Shown here one piece after another: positions 20,820 through 30,493 of a DNA stretch of 30,702 bases. Source of the stretch: Oscillospiraceae bacterium (GTDB taxonomy: Bacteria; Bacillota; Clostridia; Oscillospirales; Oscillospiraceae); assembly GCA_902765975.1 (NCBI GenBank), contig CACXBO010000147.1:1-30702 (forward strand), in the 5' to 3' direction. Made by a program: the position numbers and the translations under genes. The notes under the pieces were generated by a model, which was not told the DNA's origin, ran no database searches, and saw nothing but the letters and a program-made list of their open reading frames with translations. How positions within the stretch are numbered: the first letter of the stretch is position 1; each line of letters starts with the position of its first letter.

Positions 20820-20827
20820 AAAGATCA

Positions 20828-20853
20828 CCCCGTACAAGCTTATGTGTACGGGG
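20828..20853 (-). other. Stem-loop between the ABC ATPase and the symporter, overlapping the symporter RBS
   Basis: 9-bp perfect stem CCCCGTACA/TGTACGGGG with an 8-nt loop. Confidence 0.55.
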
Positions 20854-20863
20854 CGCCGGTTTA

Positions 20864-21982
20864 TTATTCATTTACGTAGCTTCCGTAGAGAAGATTTTCC
20901 TCTGTCTCCGGGTCGAAGACGTGTATTCTCTGAGGCTCCGGACTGAGGTGGATGGGAGTTCCGACCTGCGGTGCGTGTATATCGTCGTCGGTAAGCTGTA
21001 TGACGGCAGTTACGTCTGCGCCTCCGACGTTTGCGTGGAGGTTGAGCGTGCCTCCATTCAGCTCGGAGACGTCGGCTGAGGCGGGTATGCCGTTTTCGGA
21101 CAAGTGCAGATGTTCAGGTCTTATGCCTATCTTTACCTTGCCGCCCTTGACCTGTCTGCCCTTCAGCAGGGTTTGATGCGTTTCGGTGAGCTCAAGCTCT
21201 GCGCCCGCCGTGAAGAGACGGTAGCCGTTCTCGCTCTCCATAAGCTCGCCGTCTATGAAGTTCATCTGAGGCATTCCGATAAAGCCGGCGACGAACATAT
21301 TCGACGGCTTGCCCCAGAGCTCCTTCGGCGTTCCGACCTGCTGGATAACGCCCCTGTTCATTATTACTATCCGGTCTCCGAGGGTCATAGCCTCGGTCTG
21401 ATCGTGAGTTACGTAGATAAAAGTCGTGTTCAGCTTGCGGCGCAGCTTGATAAGCTCCGTGCGCATCTGGTTTCTGAGCTTCGCGTCGAGGTTTGAGAGA
21501 GGCTCGTCCATAAGGAACACCTTCGGCTCTCTGACTATCGATCTGCCTATTGCGACGCGCTGACGCTGTCCTCCTGAGAGAGCCTTGGGCTTGCGCTTCA
21601 GAAGGTCGCTTATCTCAAGAATTGCCGCAGCCTCCTCAACTCTCTTCTTTATTTCGCTCATAGGCATCTTGCGCATTTTGAGCGGAAATGCGATATTATC
21701 GAAAACCGTCATATGCGGGTATAGCGCGTAGTTCTGGAAGACCATGGAAATGTCCCTGTTTTTCGGCAGGACGTGGTTCATAAGCTGACCGTCTATATAC
21801 AGCTCGCCGCCGGATATCGCCTCAAGTCCCGCTACCATTCGCAGCGTCGTGCTCTTTCCGCAGCCTGAGGGTCCGACGAAGACCACGAATTCCTTATCCT
21901 TTATATGGAGATTAAAGTCCTTGACGGCCTCAAATCCGCTTTCGTATATTTTCCAAACGTGCTTCAATTCAACTTCTGCCAA
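20864..21982 (-). CDS. MalK/MsmX/UgpC-family ABC ATPase
   Basis: [46 protein letters not shown] and a C-terminal OB/TOBE region; TTG start 1 nt after the upstream stop, with a GGAAGG SD. Confidence 0.95.
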
Positions 21983-21983
21983 T

Positions 21984-23054
21984 TTACCTTCCCGCCTTTC
22001 TTTCATACCTTCTCTCGAGAGCGCGCTCCCTGTATTCAGGTATCTTCTCTTTCAGCGTTTTGAGCCCCTTTGAAATAAGCTTTACCGCCGTTATCACAAC
22101 GCAAGCAATGGGGAAAAACGATACAAGCAGCAAAAATGAGATAAGAACGAAAAGCTTATCCTCAACGTATCTTGCCGCGTTTTCCCAATACGGAAAGGCG
22201 ACCGCCTCTTTTATCATAGATCTCGTTCCGCTGTTTTTAGCCAGCTTAAGAATATTCCCCGGCGCAAAACGGTCAGTATTGTTAACAACGACTGCAGACG
22301 GGAAATTATTCTCAACGACGTTCTTCAAGAAGCCTTTAATCGGGTCTGCTCCGACCACCTCATATTCCGTTATCCATCCGCTCTGTGAAAAGTCCGACTC
22401 TTCGCCGCCGCCGAGCATTTCGCTGAGCGCGGAGTAGTGCATGAATATTCCGGGCTCGCCGCTGTACGCCGCCAATGATGCTTCGTCCTTCTCACGCTCG
22501 ACGACTCCGGCGATCGTAAACCGCTTTTCTCCTATCTCCATCGTCATTCCGGTTAGTTCATAGCCGCCGAAGAGCCTCCAAGCCGCCGCCTCGTCGAGAA
22601 TGACAACGTCCTTCATCAGGTCCGTCCCGTTCAGATAGCTTCCCGAGCGCAGCTTCAGCGGATGGAAGAAAAACCAGTCTCCTCCAATGCCGACAGCTTC
22701 AAGATTTGCCGTGCCTCGCAGTCCTTTTGCGTCTACCGTGGACGTCATGCTGTAAGCGTCCTTATAAAGGCTTCCGTTTTTCGGAGTCTCCAGGGATGCG
22801 TTAACGTACTCCGTATCGAGCGCCGCTCTGAAGGAGTAGATATCGTCCTCAGACCCCGTAACGCCCGCCTTGTAGAAGGCGGTGACCTGACCGAACGCGA
22901 GTTTGCTCGTCCCCCTGAACTTCTCCGCAGCGCCTTGAGTTTTTACCATGTCCGAAAGGCCGGAGTATATAACTGCGTCAACTGCAATCAGAATAAGTGA
23001 AAGAACGAAAGCGATAAGCAGTATGAGAACCTTTCTGTTCTTCAAAAGCTTCAT
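21984..23054 (-). CDS. MacB-periplasmic-core-like membrane protein with only two predicted TM helices
   Basis: N-terminal TM; [22 protein letters not shown]...[14 protein letters not shown] and FTIAGVV resemble MacB_PCD; one C-terminal TM and a basic tail. Confidence 0.7.
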
Positions 23055-25327
23055 GTCTCGTCCGCCAATCTGACCTGCATGCCGGAGCTTATCGGCGCAG
23101 AGGTCGTGGTTATAAGGCAGTCGTTATACGAGAGGTCGCTCGTAACGGCTACCATCGTATCATCCTCCGCGACCTTGGTAATGGCGACACGCTCTGCTAT
23201 GTATCTCGTTGAAAGCGGGGTCTGCTTTGTGATAATTCTGAGAACGAAATCACCGTTCGTATCTGAGCGAAGCGCGCTCTTCGGGATTATCGTATCGTAG
23301 TTGCGGCTGCGCTCTCCTATCGCTATGTTTATATTCGCTCCGCTCTCCACATCGGAACCGGTCACCTCGAAAACAAGGATTCTCTTATCTCTCGGGCTCT
23401 GCGGGTCGGCGCGCATGGAAACGAGCTTAGCCTGGATATCGCTTCCGCCCCACCATCCCATGGAAACCTTTGCATTATCGCCTACTGTAACTCTATCGGC
23501 CTGCTCGGTCGTTACGGACATCTCTGCTGAGTAGCCTCTGTCCGGCACCTCTATCGTAGCGATAATCTCGCCCTTCTGCGGTGTAGTCCCCGCGGACGCG
23601 CTGACGGTTTTTACTACGCCGTTGACGTCCGACCTGACCTCAAGGCCGTTCTCCTCAGCTCCTATCGCGAGAGCGTCGAGCTTCTCCTGAGCGTCCGCCA
23701 CCTTGCCCTCCTGCTTCTCAACGGCACGCTCCGCCTTGTCAATGCCGCTGCGCATCGCCTGCAGGTCGAGATCCTTCAGCTTCTTCGAGAGCTGGTCTGA
23801 TTTCTTCTGCTCCGAGAGCTGGAACAAGGCGTCCTCAAGCTGTGTCTGGAGGTTCTCGATTTCACCCGTCAAGGTGTCGTACTTTGTCTGAACTCCGTCG
23901 GCAGCCGTCTTAGCGGCGTCGTATGCGGTCTGCGCCTTCTCCTTCTTCGAGCTTGCAGCCGCGAGAGTGCCGTTCTGGATATAATCGACGTCCTCCTGCG
24001 CGTGCTCGACCGCCTTATCTTTGGCGTTCTTTTCCTTCTGCGCTTCCTTATACGCCGTTTCAAGCGGCTCGAGGGCCTTCTTTGCCTCGTTAAGCTCACG
24101 GCTGAGCCTTGAGTACTCCGAGCTGTCGGCATTTGATTTTGCGTAGACGTCGTATGCGTCGTCGTAGGTTACGTAAGCGCTCTGCTCCCTCAGCTCCGCC
24201 TGCTTGACCTCGTTTTCAGCGTCTAAAATAGCCTGCTCTGCGGCAAGGATAGCCTTATATGCGTCGTAAGCCTCGGTATCGGTATCCTTCAGCTTCTCCG
24301 CGGCGGCCGGGATATAGGTCGGGTACTTCATGTTGAAATATGAGGTTTTATGCTCCGGAGCGGGGAAATCGGTGTCGAACGAGCCTGCGCCCTTCTCCGC
24401 CTCGTAATCGGCTATTATCATCTCCTCAGCCTTTGCGGTAACTCTCGCGTTGCCTGCGTCGTAGAGGATATGCGCGGTCTCAAGGGCAGTCTTCGCGGCT
24501 TCAACACCGTCCTTTGCCTTCTGCGTCTCAGCCTTTGCTGCGTCATAGGCGTCCCTTGCCGCCTGAACGGAGGCATAGCTGGCGTCGCCGCTCGATATCT
24601 TAGCTCTCTCAGCCTCGATCGCTTCAACCTTTGACTTCGCCTCGTTATAAGGCTCTTCGGCTGTATCGAATCTCTCCTTTGCCTTCTTTGCCTCGTTCTT
24701 TGCCTTCAAGAGCGCGTCCTGAGCCTCGTCGTATTTCTTCTGCTCAGCCTCGTAAGCCTTTTCAGCCTCCTCCAGAGCGTCTCTCGCCGTCTTAAGCGCG
24801 GTATCTGAGAAGTCGAGTTCGTCGCGCTCCTTTGTTTTCTCGCTTATTTCTTCCCTCAGCTTCTGGATATTTCGGTTTTCCTTGGTGTAGTCTGCAGCTG
24901 AGGCAGCCTCGAGAAGAGAACGCTGGTAGCTTCTCCTCGAATTCTCAAGCGAATCCTTGAGATTCTGAAGCTCGGTTTCCGCGGCCTCAAGCTCCTGCTT
25001 TGCCGTCTCTATCTCCTGTGAGTCGCCTGCGGCGAGAAGGAAGAGCAAATCGCCCGTCTCGACCTGCTGGCCGACCTTGGCATAGACCGTTCTGACCTTT
25101 CTCGTGTCCTGCATGACGACCTCAAAGCTCTCAGTCGCCTTTATCGTAGCCTGACCTCTTATCTGCGCGCTTATCGTGCCGGAATCGACATACTGCACAG
25201 CAACCTCAGGGAGATTCGCGTTCATAATCGTATTTGAGAAGAATGTAAGCACCAGCATTATCGATAGGAAAATGATAACAGCCGTCTGTACCCATCCTCT
25301 TTTCTTCGTCTTGTTTTCTTCATTCAT
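23051..25327 (-). CDS. HlyD/MFP-type periplasmic adaptor with a very long coiled-coil hairpin
   Basis: N-terminal TM; split lipoyl half-motifs VYAKVGQQVETGDLLF and EVRSDVNGVVKTV...GEIIATI flanking ~450 aa of Ala/Glu/Lys-rich heptads; C-terminal beta-barrel and membrane-proximal motifs (TIIPKSALR). Confidence 0.85.
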   Translation of the reverse strand: MNEENKTKKRGWVQTAVIIFLSIMLVLTFFSNTIMNANLPEVAVQYVDSGTISAQIRGQATIKATESFEVVMQDTRKVRTVYAKVGQQVETGDLLFLLAAGDSQEIETAKQELEAAETELQNLKDSLENSRRSYQRSLLEAASAADYTKENRNIQKLREEISEKTKERDELDFSDTALKTARDALEEAEKAYEAEQKKYDEAQDALLKAKNEAKKAKERFDTAEEPYNEAKSKVEAIEAERAKISSGDASYASVQAARDAYDAAKAETQKAKDGVEAAKTALETAHILYDAGNARVTAKAEEMIIADYEAEKGAGSFDTDFPAPEHKTSYFNMKYPTYIPAAAEKLKDTDTEAYDAYKAILAAEQAILDAENEVKQAELREQSAYVTYDDAYDVYAKSNADSSEYSRLSRELNEAKKALEPLETAYKEAQKEKNAKDKAVEHAQEDVDYIQNGTLAAASSKKEKAQTAYDAAKTAADGVQTKYDTLTGEIENLQTQLEDALFQLSEQKKSDQLSKKLKDLDLQAMRSGIDKAERAVEKQEGKVADAQEKLDALAIGAEENGLEVRSDVNGVVKTVSASAGTTPQKGEIIATIEVPDRGYSAEMSVTTEQADRVTVGDNAKVSMGWWGGSDIQAKLVSMRADPQSPRDKRILVFEVTGSDVESGANINIAIGERSRNYDTIIPKSALRSDTNGDFVLRIITKQTPLSTRYIAERVAITKVAEDDTMVAVTSDLSYNDCLITTTSAPISSGMQVRLADET

Positions 25328-25358
25328 TGAGACGTCTTCCTTTCCTTTTCTTTTACGG

Positions 25359-26240
25359 TCATCCCTTAACGGAGCCCTGATGCGCTATTCCCTCCACAAG
25401 GTAATCCTCGCCGCCGAGGAAGAGGAGGAGCGTCGGTATCATATAAAACGTTGCAACTGCGAAGGCGAGTCCGACTTCTCCCGCGTTTATCTGGGAGAGG
25501 AAAACGCTCAGCGGCTGCTGGTCGGGGTCAGGCAGAAGGATAAGCGCCTGCTCGACCATATTCCAGTAATCGATGAAAACGAGTATCGCGATGGAGAACA
25601 GAGCGGCTCTGCACTGCGGCAGACATACCCTTGTGAAAACCCTCCATTCGCTCGCTCCGTCAAGCTTTGCCGCCTCAATGAGGCTCTTCGGTATCCTGCG
25701 CATAAATTTCGTTAGCAGGAAAACGGAAAACGGCGCGAAGGCTCCCGGCAGTATTATCGACCATCGGGTACCTACTAGCCCGAGCGCGTCGCTTACAAGA
25801 TAGTTCGGAACAAGAGTGACCTGATACGGCATCAACATCAGTATAACGTATGAAAAGAAGATCGCCGCTCTCGCCTTGCCCCTCCAACGCGTAAAGCCGT
25901 AGGCCGCTATGGACGCAACCGCAAGCTGGAAGAGGACAACGGGAATAGTAAGAAGGGCGCTGTTCCAGAACTTGAAAAGAAAATCGGGACTCTTTATAAG
26001 AGCCGTTACATACTGAGAAACAGTCACCTTTTCGGGGATGAATTTCAGGTTGACCTTCTCGGAAACGTAGCTGTGACCTGCCCTCGCCGTGCCGAAAACT
26101 GCGCCGTAGTTCGCCTCTATCTCGCTCTCGGTCATAAACGAGTTCGTAATCGTAAGAATAGTCGGAGTGAGAAAAGCGACGGCAAAGATAAGGCAGGCGA
26201 TGAATACGGCAGTCCTTCCCGCAATATTCTTTTTCTTCAT
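25359..26240 (-). CDS. Carbohydrate-type ABC permease (MalG-like)
   Basis: FWNSALLT, AAYGFTR, EAA loop IPKSLIEAAKLDGAS, WNMVEQ. Confidence 0.92.
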   Translation of the reverse strand: MKKKNIAGRTAVFIACLIFAVAFLTPTILTITNSFMTESEIEANYGAVFGTARAGHSYVSEKVNLKFIPEKVTVSQYVTALIKSPDFLFKFWNSALLTIPVVLFQLAVASIAAYGFTRWRGKARAAIFFSYVILMLMPYQVTLVPNYLVSDALGLVGTRWSIILPGAFAPFSVFLLTKFMRRIPKSLIEAAKLDGASEWRVFTRVCLPQCRAALFSIAILVFIDYWNMVEQALILLPDPDQQPLSVFLSQINAGEVGLAFAVATFYMIPTLLLFLGGEDYLVEGIAHQGSVKG

Positions 26241-27223
26241 CCCTCCACGTCCTTTCCGAACCAGTTCTCCACTATGAACAGGACGGCGATGATGATCACC
26301 ATCGCTATCGCCATCAGCACGGCGGCAGCCGAGAGCTTCTGGTAGTTCAGAGCGTTGAACATATTGTTCATAAAGTGCTGCAGAGTGTACAGCTTTTCAT
26401 AAGGGTAGCTTCCGGCCAGAAGGTAGACCTCGCGGAACACCTTGAAGCTGTTAATAAGGCTCAGTATAGCGACGAAGAGTATGGTCGGCGACAGGTATCT
26501 GAGCTTTATACCGAAGAATTTATAAAGCGGGGACGCGCCCTCGACGTCCGCGACCTCAAGAAGCTCTCCGGGCACGTTCGCAAGCGCGGACATAAATAGG
26601 ATCATATTGTATCCGAGGTTCTTCCAGAGGAAGAGGACTATTACAACCCACTGCGCGTAATCTGAGTTCAGCCAGTCGATCTTGTCCGCCCCGAAAAGCG
26701 CCGTAAAGTCGTTCAGCACTCCGTTATTTGAGAACACCACCTGCCAGATCAGAACTACCGATGCGACAGGCACCATCATCGGGCTCAGGAAAAACGTCCT
26801 GAATTTGCTTTTTCCCGGTATCCTCGCCTCAAGCAGAAGCGCCAGAGTCAGAGAGAGGATAACCGAGAGCGGAACAACGAGAAGCGAAAGAGTTCCCGTA
26901 TTCTTTGCCGCGAGCAGAAAGCCCGGGTTCTGCAAAAGGTTTTTATAGTTATCAAAGCCGGCGAACGACGGATCGAGATTGCTTTTCGTGAAGCTGTAGT
27001 AGATGACCACTCCGAACGGGAGCACGAAGAAAAGCATAACTCCCATAAAGCTCGGTCCGAGGAAGCCTATGCTTGTGAGGAATTCGCGCGTCCTCGTTCT
27101 CTTTATCGCACGCCGCTGCTCAGGCGAAAGCTCTGCGCTCACCTCGCGTATCCGCTCTCTCACCCTCCGCTTTTCAGCGCGGGCTTCCCGCCATTTCTTA
27201 AAAGGATTTGAAATCTCACTCAC
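26237..27223 (-). CDS. Carbohydrate-type ABC permease (MalF-like)
   Basis: FAGFDNY, FFLSPMMVPVAS, WKNLGYNMILFMSAL, degenerate EAA loop VPGELLEVADVEGAS; GTG start with AGAGGA SD. Confidence 0.92.
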   Translation of the reverse strand: MSEISNPFKKWREARAEKRRVRERIREVSAELSPEQRRAIKRTRTREFLTSIGFLGPSFMGVMLFFVLPFGVVIYYSFTKSNLDPSFAGFDNYKNLLQNPGFLLAAKNTGTLSLLVVPLSVILSLTLALLLEARIPGKSKFRTFFLSPMMVPVASVVLIWQVVFSNNGVLNDFTALFGADKIDWLNSDYAQWVVIVLFLWKNLGYNMILFMSALANVPGELLEVADVEGASPLYKFFGIKLRYLSPTILFVAILSLINSFKVFREVYLLAGSYPYEKLYTLQHFMNNMFNALNYQKLSAAAVLMAIAMVIIIAVLFIVENWFGKDVEG

Positions 27224-27231
27224 TTCCTCTC

Positions 27232-29676
27232 TTATCTCTGCTCGTTAACGTATAGGAACGCTCTGGAGTTTATCGCCTTTGCCGCGTCCTGTGCGCTCTG
27301 CTGCCCGGAAAAATATGCGCTTGCTCTGTCGACAATAATCTCATATATAGCGTCGTCAAAGCCGTATATCCTCGTCGTCTCATTTATGAGCGAGGTAATC
27401 TTTTCGACCTGCTCGTCGGTAAGGTGGTAAATCTGTCCGCCGCCTAAGCCAACGCTATCCGAAACCGCGATCTTGGCGTCGTAATAAACTTCCCCGAAGC
27501 CGCCCCATCCCTTCGGCTCCTCGATCTTCTCGCCGTTCTCATCCAGGATATATGCGCCGCGCTCGTCGCGCCTGTAAACCGGAGTCCTTGCCTCAAGAAG
27601 CTTTCTGTCGAACGCCGCCTTGTTGGACGGAAACCCGTACATGGCCCTGGACTGGTAAGACTCAGACAGGAAACGGCTCATAAACTCCCACGCGCCCGCC
27701 TTATCGGCGCAGGTCGCGCTCATGGCAATTCCCATATTGGTTGAAAACGCGCTTCCGACTCCGCTCTCAACGGGATAGCCGACAAAGGTCATATCCCCGC
27801 CCATGCTCATCTCGTTACGGCGCCATTCGATAAAGTCGCCTATATCCAATACCTCAAGAAGCTGGTAGCCCTCAAGTATCGCGCTTGAGCCGGGGAACGG
27901 GTCTCCCTGCTCTTCCCTGTAGTATTTTTCCGCGTCGAAGGTCGCGGGGAACATATTCGCAAATTCCAGTATTCCGACGAAATTCGGGCTGTTGAAGCTC
28001 ACCTGACCGTTAGACCAGTTTACGAAGCCGTCGAGCATTATAGCGCAAACATCGTGCAGAGCGTCGCTCTTCGTGTATTCAACGCTGAATACCGTTGCCT
28101 CCGGCCACAGCGTTTTGTATGCGCGCATTAGCTCCTTCATATTCCAGCCCATATGGTCTCCGACTACGTCCGTCTGACCTGCTACCGTACGCACAGTGAA
28201 GGACGGCGATATCTGATACAGCTTTCCTTCAGTCGACAGGGCGTTGAAGAAGGGCTCGACTACGCCCTGTCTTCCGTAAGTGGATTCTATGTACGGCCAG
28301 AGATCCTCAAGATATCCCTTCGCGCTGAGCTGGCGCATCGGCATATCCGTGCAGGAGAATAAATCCGGTATCTTACCAGACAAAAGCTCAGTTGTAAGCT
28401 TCTTCAGTGCTCCCTCGCTCGAGCCCTTGCCATTGTCGTCGTCGAACTGCGAGTAGTCTATGACCTCAATGCGGTACTTCTGGCTCGTTCTGTTAAACTT
28501 AATTATTTCGCGGCGCACATTGCTGTCGAGTCCGAGGCAAGCATAGGAAAGATACGTCTTCTCCGGCAGGCTCTCCGTTCTGACCTTGTAGATCCTGTAC
28601 ATTCCGGTGGTCTCGCCCTGGTCGTCGTACTGCGTTGAGAATGCAAGAACGCTGCCCTCATCGGTGACTATGAGGTTTTCAAGGTAGTCCGCGTCAACGT
28701 CGCAGTTTGTGAAGTTGAACAGAAGCTCCGACTCTCCGCTGTCCATTTTGAGCCCCATAAAGTTGAGCCCGTTCGTATAGAAATAGTCGTACTCGTCGTT
28801 GCCCATGTATAGCCTGTTTGATGAAATGGACGGAAGCATCTCCGGCTCGTCAAGCTTGCCTGCGGCAATATTGATTCTCGACACCATCATTGTTTCGCCG
28901 CCGTCGCCCCATTCGGTGCTTGTTACGCCTACCGAACCGTCGCTCATCCTTACCGATGAGCTGAACCAGGATTCGCCCGTTATCATTGCCCTGAAGTCGC
29001 CGGACTTGTCAAGGCAGATTATCGTATCTCCTCCTACCAGATAGAGATTACCGAGAGCGTCAGCTATCATATCGTTGACGTAAAAGCCGTAAGCATTCTC
29101 TTCTTCGCCCAGGAACCTGGTCAGATCAGAGGATAATATCTTATTCCCGTCATAATCCAGTTTTGAAAGAGTGTAGCTCTGCTTAGACTCATAGTAGTCC
29201 CAGTACTTATCGCCGACATCCTCCCGTGTCATTCCCTCCGGAAGATTTACTCGGCTCATATATGCCTGCTCGCATATCCACATTCCGTCCGTCGAAGCAA
29301 GAAAAGCCTGAACGTTGTTTCTCCCGTCCCAGCCATCCTCGACCGGCGAAGGGGCAAACTCAGCTATCACCTTCAGGTCCGTTCCGTCAAGCGCCATGCT
29401 GTTCACGTGGTATATACTGTTCTCTCGGTAACTGTACTCGCCCGTTTCCTCGTCAAGCACCTCTTCATAGCCGCTCGTAAACGACAGGTAATACACCCTC
29501 CTTCCGGAGTATGCAAAGCCCCTTATGCTTTGATCCTCGCTCTGCAGCTGGGTAAAGGCGGAGGTATACGTAAATTCCGGTCTCTCCTCAGCTCCCGGGT
29601 TCTCTTTTTTCCCGCAGCCGGTAAAAAGAGATATCGTTATCACGGCGGCAAGAAGAAGCGCCGTCAGTCTCTTCAT
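27232..29676 (-). CDS. Large two-domain extracellular solute-binding lipoprotein (beta-rich N-terminal half plus family-1-like SBP)
   Basis: MKR signal with FTGC lipobox; ~370 aa of beta-repeat-like sequence; SBP half with IIKFNRTSQKYRIEVIDY, GKIPDLF, YLEDLWPYIE, KAGAWEFMSRFLS; AGGAGG SD supports ATG 29676. Confidence 0.85.
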   Translation of the reverse strand: MKRLTALLLAAVITISLFTGCGKKENPGAEERPEFTYTSAFTQLQSEDQSIRGFAYSGRRVYYLSFTSGYEEVLDEETGEYSYRENSIYHVNSMALDGTDLKVIAEFAPSPVEDGWDGRNNVQAFLASTDGMWICEQAYMSRVNLPEGMTREDVGDKYWDYYESKQSYTLSKLDYDGNKILSSDLTRFLGEEENAYGFYVNDMIADALGNLYLVGGDTIICLDKSGDFRAMITGESWFSSSVRMSDGSVGVTSTEWGDGGETMMVSRINIAAGKLDEPEMLPSISSNRLYMGNDEYDYFYTNGLNFMGLKMDSGESELLFNFTNCDVDADYLENLIVTDEGSVLAFSTQYDDQGETTGMYRIYKVRTESLPEKTYLSYACLGLDSNVRREIIKFNRTSQKYRIEVIDYSQFDDDNGKGSSEGALKKLTTELLSGKIPDLFSCTDMPMRQLSAKGYLEDLWPYIESTYGRQGVVEPFFNALSTEGKLYQISPSFTVRTVAGQTDVVGDHMGWNMKELMRAYKTLWPEATVFSVEYTKSDALHDVCAIMLDGFVNWSNGQVSFNSPNFVGILEFANMFPATFDAEKYYREEQGDPFPGSSAILEGYQLLEVLDIGDFIEWRRNEMSMGGDMTFVGYPVESGVGSAFSTNMGIAMSATCADKAGAWEFMSRFLSESYQSRAMYGFPSNKAAFDRKLLEARTPVYRRDERGAYILDENGEKIEEPKGWGGFGEVYYDAKIAVSDSVGLGGGQIYHLTDEQVEKITSLINETTRIYGFDDAIYEIIVDRASAYFSGQQSAQDAAKAINSRAFLYVNEQR

Positions 29677-29721: not shown

Positions 29722-30438
29722 TCAAAGCTTCGAGAACACCTCGCCTATCCTGCCCTTTATCGCAAGGTCGGCTGAATTGTCGAGCCCCGTGGGCGAGAGG
29801 TTTATAACTGCAAGCCAGCGCCCTCCGAAATATCTCACAAGTCCGGCAGCCGGATAAACGACAAGGCTCGTGCCGCCCACTATCAGCATATCCGCTCTCT
29901 CGATGGCGTTAACGCTCTTTCTCAGCACCTTATCGTCGAGCATCTCCTCATAAAGAACGATATCCGGCCTCACTATCCCGCCGCACTCGCAGCGAGGAAC
30001 GCCTGTAGCCCTCTGGCAGAAGTCGGCGGAGTAGCGCATGCCGCATTTTGAGCAATAGTTCCGCAGGAGCGAGCCGTGGAGCTCAAGGACGTTCTTCGAG
30101 CCTGCGGCCTGATGGAGCCCGTCAATATTCTGTGTGATGACAGCCTTCAGCTTGCCTCTCTCCTCCAGCTTTGCGAGATAGAGATGCGCGGCGTTGGGTT
30201 TCGCGTCGCGGACTATGAGCTTGTCTCTGTAGAATCTGTAAAACTCCTCGGGATTCCTTTCAAAAAAGCTTCTCGAAATGATCTCCTCCGGCGGGTATTT
30301 GTATTTCTGGTTATACAAGCCGTCGACGCTCCGGAAATCGGGGATCCCGCTCTCCGTGGACACTCCTGCGCCCCCGAAGAAAACGATGTTTTCAGAGTTT
30401 TCTATCATTTCCCGGAGCCGTGAAATCTTTTCTTCCAC
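29722..30438 (-). CDS. cobB: NAD-dependent protein deacylase (Sir2/CobB)
   Basis: GAGVSTESGIPDFRS, ITQNIDGLH, ELHG, Zn ribbon CSKC...CEC, RPDIVLYEE, GTSLVVYPA; GTG 30438 has an AAAGGA SD (ATG 30447 is the alternative). Confidence 0.95.
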   Translation of the reverse strand: MEEKISRLREMIENSENIVFFGGAGVSTESGIPDFRSVDGLYNQKYKYPPEEIISRSFFERNPEEFYRFYRDKLIVRDAKPNAAHLYLAKLEERGKLKAVITQNIDGLHQAAGSKNVLELHGSLLRNYCSKCGMRYSADFCQRATGVPRCECGGIVRPDIVLYEEMLDDKVLRKSVNAIERADMLIVGGTSLVVYPAAGLVRYFGGRWLAVINLSPTGLDNSADLAIKGRIGEVFSKL

Positions 30439-30493
30439 TATTATCATCCTTTATTTTGTTGTAGCGTTCCGCCGGCAATCAATATACTGTATT

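Follow-up and report, generated by a model that had tools for sequence, protein, structure and literature searches.

Can the subunits of a binding-protein-dependent importer and those of an efflux pump belong to one machine? Transporters with an ATP-binding cassette (ABC) are classed by fold, and each class has its own partners. Type I importers are paired with binding proteins, and type VII transporters, represented by MacB, with adaptors. The question was raised by a stretch of 30,702 nucleotides from an Oscillospiraceae bacterium (GCA_902765975.1, contig CACXBO010000147.1, positions 1 to 30,702 of the forward strand), the whole of which is called the window here. On its minus strand, from 29676 to 20864, six densely packed open reading frames (ORFs) run in the same direction. 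They encode a lipoprotein resembling a solute-binding protein (SBP), a MalF/UgpA-type and a MalG/UgpE-type permease, a HlyD/MacA-type membrane-fusion adaptor, a MacB_PCD protein that amounts to half of MacB (the PCD protein), and a MalK/UgpC/MsmK-type ATPase. This hybrid mixes the partners of type I and type VII systems and has discarded the MacB motor, so at least one of the partner rules must bend. Its subunit composition is new for an ABC transporter, and full-text searches of the literature found no paper that treats the combination of importer, adaptor and PCD protein as a class. We consider it highly probable that the six genes make up one conserved functional unit.

Organization of the operon

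The spacing between successive genes was 8, -4, 31, -4 and 1 nt, with stop/start overlaps in the MalF-MalG and adaptor-PCD gene pairs. The last value assumes that the ATPase gene starts at TTG 21982, behind GGAAGG; an in-frame alternative is ATG 22006. The first gene, which encodes the lipoprotein, has its ATG nine bases past an AGGAGG sequence (29691-29686). At the other end, an intrinsic terminator-like hairpin with an 11-bp stem, seven GC pairs and a T tract is located on the minus strand at 20826..20855, 9 nt past the stop codon of the ATPase gene. Read in the direction of the genes (20855..20826), it is the sole strong hairpin of the region, and no comparably strong terminator-like site was found inside the six-gene block. 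Because no gap or overlap exceeds 31 nt, the first gene is led by a ribosome-binding site and the one strong terminator follows the ATPase gene, the six genes can be regarded as one operon. A preliminary description of this DNA had placed six genes at these positions and with this spacing, and the ORF map agreed with it. It had also remarked on what is missing nearby. Within the window we likewise found no MacB/LolD-type ATPase, TolC, glycoside hydrolase or sugar regulator, the search for TolC/OEP being confined to the window.

Conservation of the gene set

The gene set showed strict co-inheritance. When the PCD protein was used as the query at class level, 29 of 400 genomes contained a homologue, and the order MalF, MalG, adaptor, PCD protein was kept in 16/16 enlarged loci from this search. 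The reverse search with MalG gave matches in 35 of 399 genomes. In all of the 12 further distant loci, where MalG was 41-51% identical, the adaptor gene and a PCD-bearing gene stood right past MalG. A scan of one genome per species with two diagnostic MalG motifs, M[LM]MP[FY]QVT and [NY]WNMVEQ, both of which are present in the MalG of the window, detected at least 575 species genomes. Among the best 80 of these loci, 73 had MalG, adaptor and PCD genes, and the other seven ended at a contig edge before the expected genes. The three genes therefore stood in series in 73/73 loci with enough downstream DNA. The preliminary description had made its view of a single machine depend on the conservation of the adaptor and MacB-like genes with the permeases, and this conservation was seen in all three sets of loci.

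The linkage was also evident from phylogeny. In a maximum-likelihood tree of 101 hybrid-linked MalG sequences, with two ordinary CUT1 MalG paralogues as the outgroup, the hybrid-linked sequences formed one clade apart from the ordinary CUT1 MalG, with support of 100/100. Conversely, every PCD homologue with two transmembrane (TM) helices that we checked adjoined MalFG. Since the MalG-adaptor-PCD order is conserved and the hybrid MalG clade is exclusive, a chance juxtaposition of two unrelated systems was rejected. Weak PCD matches in seven genomes (L022-L025, L027, L029 and L030) were rejected as hybrids; they lacked the adaptor and MalFG, and were MacB-type permeases with their own ATPase adjacent. 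A HMMER search over 1.84 billion cluster representatives returned 668 members of the PCD family at E <= 1e-10, and the best 150 of these were mostly 330-500 aa long.

The hybrid is spread over gut, rumen and cellulolytic Clostridia at the species level. These include Lachnospiraceae and Oscillospiraceae, the families that dominate animal guts, and the biofuel model Clostridium (Acetivibrio) thermocellum, and the gene order has been kept from C. thermocellum to both families. One contig labelled Barnesiella intestinihominis, of the Bacteroidota (L139), carried an operon near-identical to that of an Oscillospiraceae locus (L129), with branch lengths of 0.025 and 0.009. The contig was probably mis-binned, and transfer across phyla is the less likely cause.

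The importer subunits

Both permeases belong to the BPD_transp_1 family (PF00528), have six predicted TM helices each according to the TM scan, and contain EAA-type coupling loops (EAAKLDGA and EVADVEGA, the MalG loop reading IEAAKLDGA). The MalF-like protein (26237..27223, minus strand, 328 aa) matched PF00528 with an E value of 3e-14 and had UgpA and GlcT as its top NCBIfam matches. It was 51-87% identical to its syntenic orthologues. The MalG-like protein (25359..26240, minus strand, 293 aa) matched PF00528 with an E value of 2.8e-14, and GlcU and MalG in NCBIfam. It was the most conserved subunit of the set, with a mean column identity of 72% among 57 orthologues.

The ATPase gene (20864..21982, minus strand) encodes ABC_tran, OB_MalK and TOBE_2 domains. 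The protein scored 457.9 bits against the UgpC family NF008653, above the cut-off of 432, and carries the C-terminal OB/TOBE regulatory domain. A CUT1 type I importer is recognized by such a permease pair together with a MalK-type ATPase bearing this regulatory domain, and the window has both. The ATPase gene directly follows the PCD gene in the window, in 19 of the 73 related loci and in loci L050 and L051, and is encoded outside the operon in most related loci.

The lipoprotein (27232..29676, minus strand, 814 aa by translation of the ORF) has a signal peptide and the lipobox LFTGC. Neither the whole protein nor its halves matched any Pfam or NCBIfam family at E values up to 10, so it was identified through its fold. 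Its AlphaFold2 model (pLDDT 85.3) consists of an N-terminal six-bladed, NHL-like beta-propeller (about residues 35-370) and a MalE-type solute-binding domain (about 373-814). Residues 35-370 aligned to NHL propellers with Z scores of 19.4 and 18.6 in VIA-align. The closest solved relative of the binding domain was CbpC of C. thermocellum (PDB 7x0o), with a sequence E value of 4.5e-8; this structure was also the top Foldseek match, and VIA-align gave a Z score of 25.4 over residues 373-812. Residues 373-814 aligned to MalE, YesO and BxlE as well. An extracytoplasmic MalE-fold (lipo)protein, the third hallmark of a CUT1 importer, is thus present.

A gene for such a giant SBP lipoprotein (750-970 aa) adjoined nearly all loci, in one to three paralogous copies, and some genomes had many SBP copies, either scattered or clustered. 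One contig (G436:C126:57878-78406) contained about nine CbpC-like SBP matches in approximately 20 kb. Genomes of genus g37 had up to 11 CbpC-like matches each, some of them twin binding domains in single frames of approximately 880-920 aa.

The adaptor and the half-MacB protein

The adaptor (23051..25327, minus strand, 758 aa) begins with a TM anchor at residues 17-35, followed by a split lipoyl domain, the half-lipoyl motifs of which flank a coiled coil. The coiled-coil hairpin comprises about 450 residues (approximately 103-555), and the beta-barrel and membrane-proximal domains follow at approximately 560-758. Family matches were HlyD_3 at 564-659, Biotin_lipoyl_2, TIGR01730 RND_mfp at 489-754, and MacA at 10-122. 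Each arm of the hairpin has about 220 residues and, judged from the helix rise, would be about 30 nm long, which could span a Gram-positive wall. The host is presumably a monoderm. In monoderms, adaptors are anchored through an N-terminal helix and are thought to cross the wall.

The PCD protein (21984..23054, minus strand, 356 aa) matched PF12704 only. Its AlphaFold2 model (pLDDT 90.6) shows TM1 at residues 7-34, an extracytoplasmic core made of the Porter and Sabre subdomains, and TM2 within a long helix at 289-355, which continues as a single helix into a basic cytoplasmic tail. This is exactly the TM1-PCD-TM2 part of a MacB-type permease and corresponds to one half of the membrane domain in a type VII ABC system. 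Neither the TM scan nor the model nor the fold matches revealed TM3/TM4, a coupling helix or a nucleotide-binding domain (NBD), and there was no match to PF02687 (FtsX), leaving the protein short of the four-TM architecture of MacAB pumps. Foldseek matched it to MacB (3ftj, a periplasmic domain; 5gko, 5nik and 5lil), YknZ (5f9q) and Spr0695 (5xu1), and the match to Swiss-Prot MacB models extended over residues 10-314. A PYWENA motif just before TM2 is invariant in the family. The operon thus shares with MacAB pumps a PCD between TM1 and TM2 and a HlyD-family adaptor; the MacB/LolD/FtsE-type NBD, fused or adjacent, is absent from the operon, as is TolC from the window.

Long and short forms of the PCD protein

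The PCD protein occurs in two forms. Loci with a long form (454-480 aa, with at least three extra hydrophobic segments), including that of C. thermocellum, branched basally in the MalG tree. Loci with the two-helix form, including the window, made up one clade of 88 rows with support of 98/98. The short form looks derived from a longer MacB-like form through loss of the C-terminal membrane part, in a tree whose root depends on two outgroup rows only, both of them long-branched. The long form was rejected as a full MacB permease, since it had no Pfam FtsX match and aligned to MacB 5lil over residues 293-598 only, the TM1-PCD-TM2 part.

The subunits diverged at very different rates. In the short-form clade, the mean column identity was 61% for MalF and 72% for MalG, versus 26% for the PCD protein and 28% for the SBP. 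Across the 16 class-level loci, the adaptor and PCD proteins were 24-38% identical, versus 51-68% for the permeases. The length of the adaptor varied from 505 to 876 aa in the short-form clade and from 323 to 559 aa beside the long forms.

Two loci depart from this pattern. At L057:6817-7947 (genome G151), in the long-form branch, the PCD protein has 376 aa and no more than two late hydrophobic segments. Its sister is the form of 454 aa at L058. Either a truncation took place here independently for a second time, or the assembly has introduced an artefact. In a genome of the same order as that of the window (G379), L063:4171-12437 contains two tandem modules. The first has MalF, MalG, an adaptor of 341 aa and a PCD protein of 371 aa. 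The second has MalF, MalG, a 146-aa protein and a PCD-like protein of 368 aa, so that a small protein takes the place of the adaptor.

Comparison with known transporters

The permease pair, the MalK/UgpC ATPase and the MalE-fold SBP of the window are shared with CUT1 importers such as MalEFGK2, UgpBAEC and the MsmX/MsmK-sharing systems of Firmicutes. In those Firmicutes systems the ATPase is often encoded elsewhere, as in most hybrid loci. However, CUT1 importers have no membrane-fusion or PCD protein, and their SBPs are about 400-450 aa long and have no propeller. Their operons usually adjoin glycoside hydrolases and regulators, unlike the operon of the window.

The adaptor and the PCD protein have their counterparts in MacAB-TolC, in YknXYZ of Bacillus subtilis and in Spr0693-0694-0695 of Streptococcus pneumoniae, which combine a HlyD/MacA adaptor with a PCD between TM1 and TM2. 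In contrast to these pumps, the window has no TM3/TM4, coupling helix or MacB NBD, and its only ATPase is of the MalK type. The coiled coil, with about 450 residues, is several times that of MacA, and the membrane partners have the type I importer fold. The preliminary description had tied adaptors to TolC and diderms. They are not so restricted, as the solved structures from Gram-positive pumps (YknZ, 5f9q; Spr0694-0695, 5xu1) demonstrate. In Sphingomonas sp. A1, the alginate "pit" system (AlgM1M2SS-AlgQ1/Q2) combines a type I ABC importer with a further envelope structure, which helps it to take up a very large carbohydrate. That system differs from the hybrid in belonging to a diderm and in using other accessory proteins, with no adaptor or PCD.

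The only member studied so far is transporter C of C. thermocellum (cbpC-msdC1-msdC2, Cthe_2125-2128 / Clo1313_2783-2786), which is followed by acrA-like and MacB-like genes. The order at this locus (L174) is the same as in the window: SBP, MalF-type permease, MalG-type permease, adaptor and PCD protein. Its MalF and MalG are 44% and 46% identical to those of the window, and its MalG falls inside the hybrid clade. The product of its CbpC-like gene scored 981.6 bits against PDB 7x0o over residues 24-460. Transporter C belongs to the long-form branch of the hybrid. Unlike the window, it has an SBP of 460 aa that lacks the propeller, a PCD protein of 473 aa with extra C-terminal TM segments, a short adaptor and no MalK in the cluster. 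The adaptor of strain ATCC 27405 reads as two ORFs of 300 aa and 152 aa with an 8-nt overlap (L174:8634-9987). This suggests a frameshift, and the adaptor may be broken, which could bear on the missing phenotype of transporter C, though the tests used DSM 1313. Downstream of the PCD gene is a SigI/RsgI-type pair with a GH10 module.

The existence of transporter C qualifies the statement in the preliminary description that such gene sets had no functional characterization. No paper found in the searches describes them as a class, but this member has been studied, only as a "sugar transporter". The usual annotation splits the unit into a "sugar ABC transporter permease", an "efflux RND adaptor" and an "ABC transporter permease", and so hides it. 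This may be the reason that no function could so far be assigned to transporter C. The group includes a member that is genetically tractable.

A working model and its alternatives

What the data show is the gene content, the folds, the strict co-inheritance and the absence of a second motor. We favor an importer with an accessory envelope structure, which would be powered by MalK only, and put the probability of this reading at roughly 0.45. Its core would be a CUT1-type, binding-protein-dependent type I importer consisting of the propeller-SBP lipoprotein, the MalF/MalG-type pair and a MalK-type dimer. To this core would be added two obligate accessory envelope subunits taken from MacAB-type (type VII) pumps, namely the adaptor and the motor-less half-MacB. 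The lipoprotein would capture a carbohydrate-type ligand and hand it over to MalFG, with MalK2 as the source of all energy. With its two helices, the PCD protein may dock next to the permeases and hold the adaptor in place, and the two together could form a wall-spanning scaffold or conduit serving uptake. The physical association of the subunits, the direction of import and the roles of the adaptor and PCD protein are inferred. The multiple paralogous SBPs per locus follow a pattern typical of uptake systems. A bolder claim is that the hybrid represents a mechanistically new class of ABC transporter. In such a machine, importer-fold membrane domains driven by a MalK-type ATPase would be coupled mechanically to an extracytoplasmic domain descended from MacB and to a wall-spanning adaptor of approximately 30 nm. 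We regard this claim as tentative and less likely than not. If it is true, the Gram-positive wall is crossed by a conduit belonging to an importer, or else an outward device has taken over the importer fold as its motor.

Several points weigh against an importer. Neither in the window nor in loci L047-L051 does a glycoside hydrolase, sugar kinase or sugar regulator lie beside the operon. A closed MacA-like hexamer over the permeases would leave little room for docking of the 90-kDa SBP. The gap between permease identities of 61-72% and SBP and PCD identities of 26-28% is unusual for substrate-diversifying sugar importers. A complex prediction for MalF (45-328), MalG and the PCD protein, based on 57-row alignments, scored 0.00, which speaks neither for nor against binding. 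The experimental data on transporter C point the same way. The disruptant grew normally on glucose, cellobiose and Avicel, CbpC bound no glucose, xylose or cellodextrins G2-G5 in isothermal titration calorimetry and nuclear magnetic resonance experiments, and an extra loop blocks its pocket (Yan et al. 2022, PMC9601137). That paper treats transporter C as a plain sugar transporter, and "acra" is found in a figure legend only. An earlier study, according to values quoted in PMC11212667, had reported sub-micromolar binding of G1-G5 (glucose to cellopentaose) by CbpC. The CbpC binding data are contradictory.

Much of this would fit a machine that works outward, with MalFGK2 acting not as a nutrient importer but as the motor, driven by ATP, of a mechanotransmission device like MacAB. 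Movements of MalF and MalG would be passed to the PCD protein and the adaptor, which would expel or extract an envelope molecule (a lipid-linked glycan, a peptide or a toxin) through the wall, while the SBP-like lipoprotein would act as trigger, substrate donor or acceptor. The characterized PCD proteins among the fold matches (MacB, LolCDE, HrtBA, BceAB and YknZ) are all outward or mechanical. The PCD core and the PYWENA motif at the membrane face remained invariant despite the lost membrane bundle, suggesting an active role rather than a relic. The missing sugar-catabolic neighbours, the blocked pocket and lack of sugar binding of CbpC, and the normal growth of the transporter C mutant on sugars agree with such a device, and a mechanical role with several partners would fit the very strong conservation seen in MalF and MalG. 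We nonetheless judge it unlikely. The ATPase carries a regulatory domain, belongs to the shared MsmK/UgpC type and is mostly encoded off the operon, as in ordinary sugar importers, and a locus with several paralogous SBPs is more typical of uptake. The complex prediction decides nothing for this reading either. To our knowledge, no type I (MalFG-fold) ABC transporter acts outward or drives an external domain.

The unequal rates of divergence, with identities of 24-38% for the adaptor and PCD proteins versus 51-68% for the permeases, could instead reflect two uncoupled modules in one operon. An ordinary sugar-type importer and an independent adaptor/PCD complex, such as a wall tether or protective device, would then be co-expressed for the same physiological state and have no physical coupling, a possibility on which the score of 0.00 for the complex is equally silent. 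However, the linkage is exclusive both ways: MalG of the hybrid clade goes with the adaptor/PCD pair, and the two-TM PCD goes with MalFG. The stop/start overlaps in the MalF-MalG and adaptor-PCD pairs, the gene order conserved between C. thermocellum and the families Oscillospiraceae and Lachnospiraceae, and the lack of any known independent activity of a motor-less PCD make uncoupled modules improbable. A sensor or "transceptor", in which SBP-MalFGK2 and the MacB-like protein inform a regulator of an extracellular ligand or of transport flux, much as BceAB informs BceS, rather than supplying the cell, seems very improbable. In its favor are the failure of CbpC to bind the tested sugars and the SigI/RsgI-type sensor pair with its GH10 module beside the C. 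thermocellum locus. Three basal long-form loci also have ORFs upstream (L057:14166-17387, L058:153-2083 and L052:2972-6056) that, in size and TM pattern only, look like a response regulator, a histidine kinase and a further SBP-like protein of approximately 415 aa. No regulator lies near the operon in the short-form clade, to which the window belongs, and an adaptor of 30 nm has no obvious part in sensing flux.

Host genome and neighbouring genes

An importer driven by its MalK-type ATPase is also in keeping with the gene inventory of the host, a rumen Clostridia genome of 1.38 Mb that is 92% complete. Among the matches listed, its nearest relative was the rumen metagenome-assembled genome RUG626, with 94% identity in MalG. 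All six operon genes are present in single copy. The adaptor is the only HlyD_3 adaptor and the PCD protein the only PF12704 match of the genome. The other FtsX-domain proteins (contigs C10 and C125) are FtsEX and one fused ATPase-permease of 1187 aa, which have their own ATPases. No orphan MacB-type motor for the PCD protein was seen in the host genome, and the protein in any case has no part to which one could bind. The operon contains one of only two CUT1-type permease sets of the genome, the other (contig C100) being 29% identical. One other MalK-like gene, 58-59% identical, is cut by the end of contig C89.

The genes flanking the operon in the window encode Sir2, a Na:alanine symporter, RNase Y and Rnf. 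The gene of the Sir2-family deacetylase (29722-30447, minus strand) ends 45 nt upstream of the first operon gene. The stretch between the Sir2 and SBP genes showed no promoter-like site. Sir2 may be co-transcribed with the six genes, since the nearest promoter-like site on the same strand is upstream of Sir2 (30521-30494). Four bovine sequencing runs contained sequence near-identical to the window, and one of them (X4) was true RNA-seq. This metatranscriptome yielded a few exact contigs of 143-200 nt in the adaptor and SBP genes, at 24692-24834, 28143-28342 and 28999-29148, none of them across a gene junction. DNA carry-over is possible, and the contigs hint that the operon is expressed in the animal.

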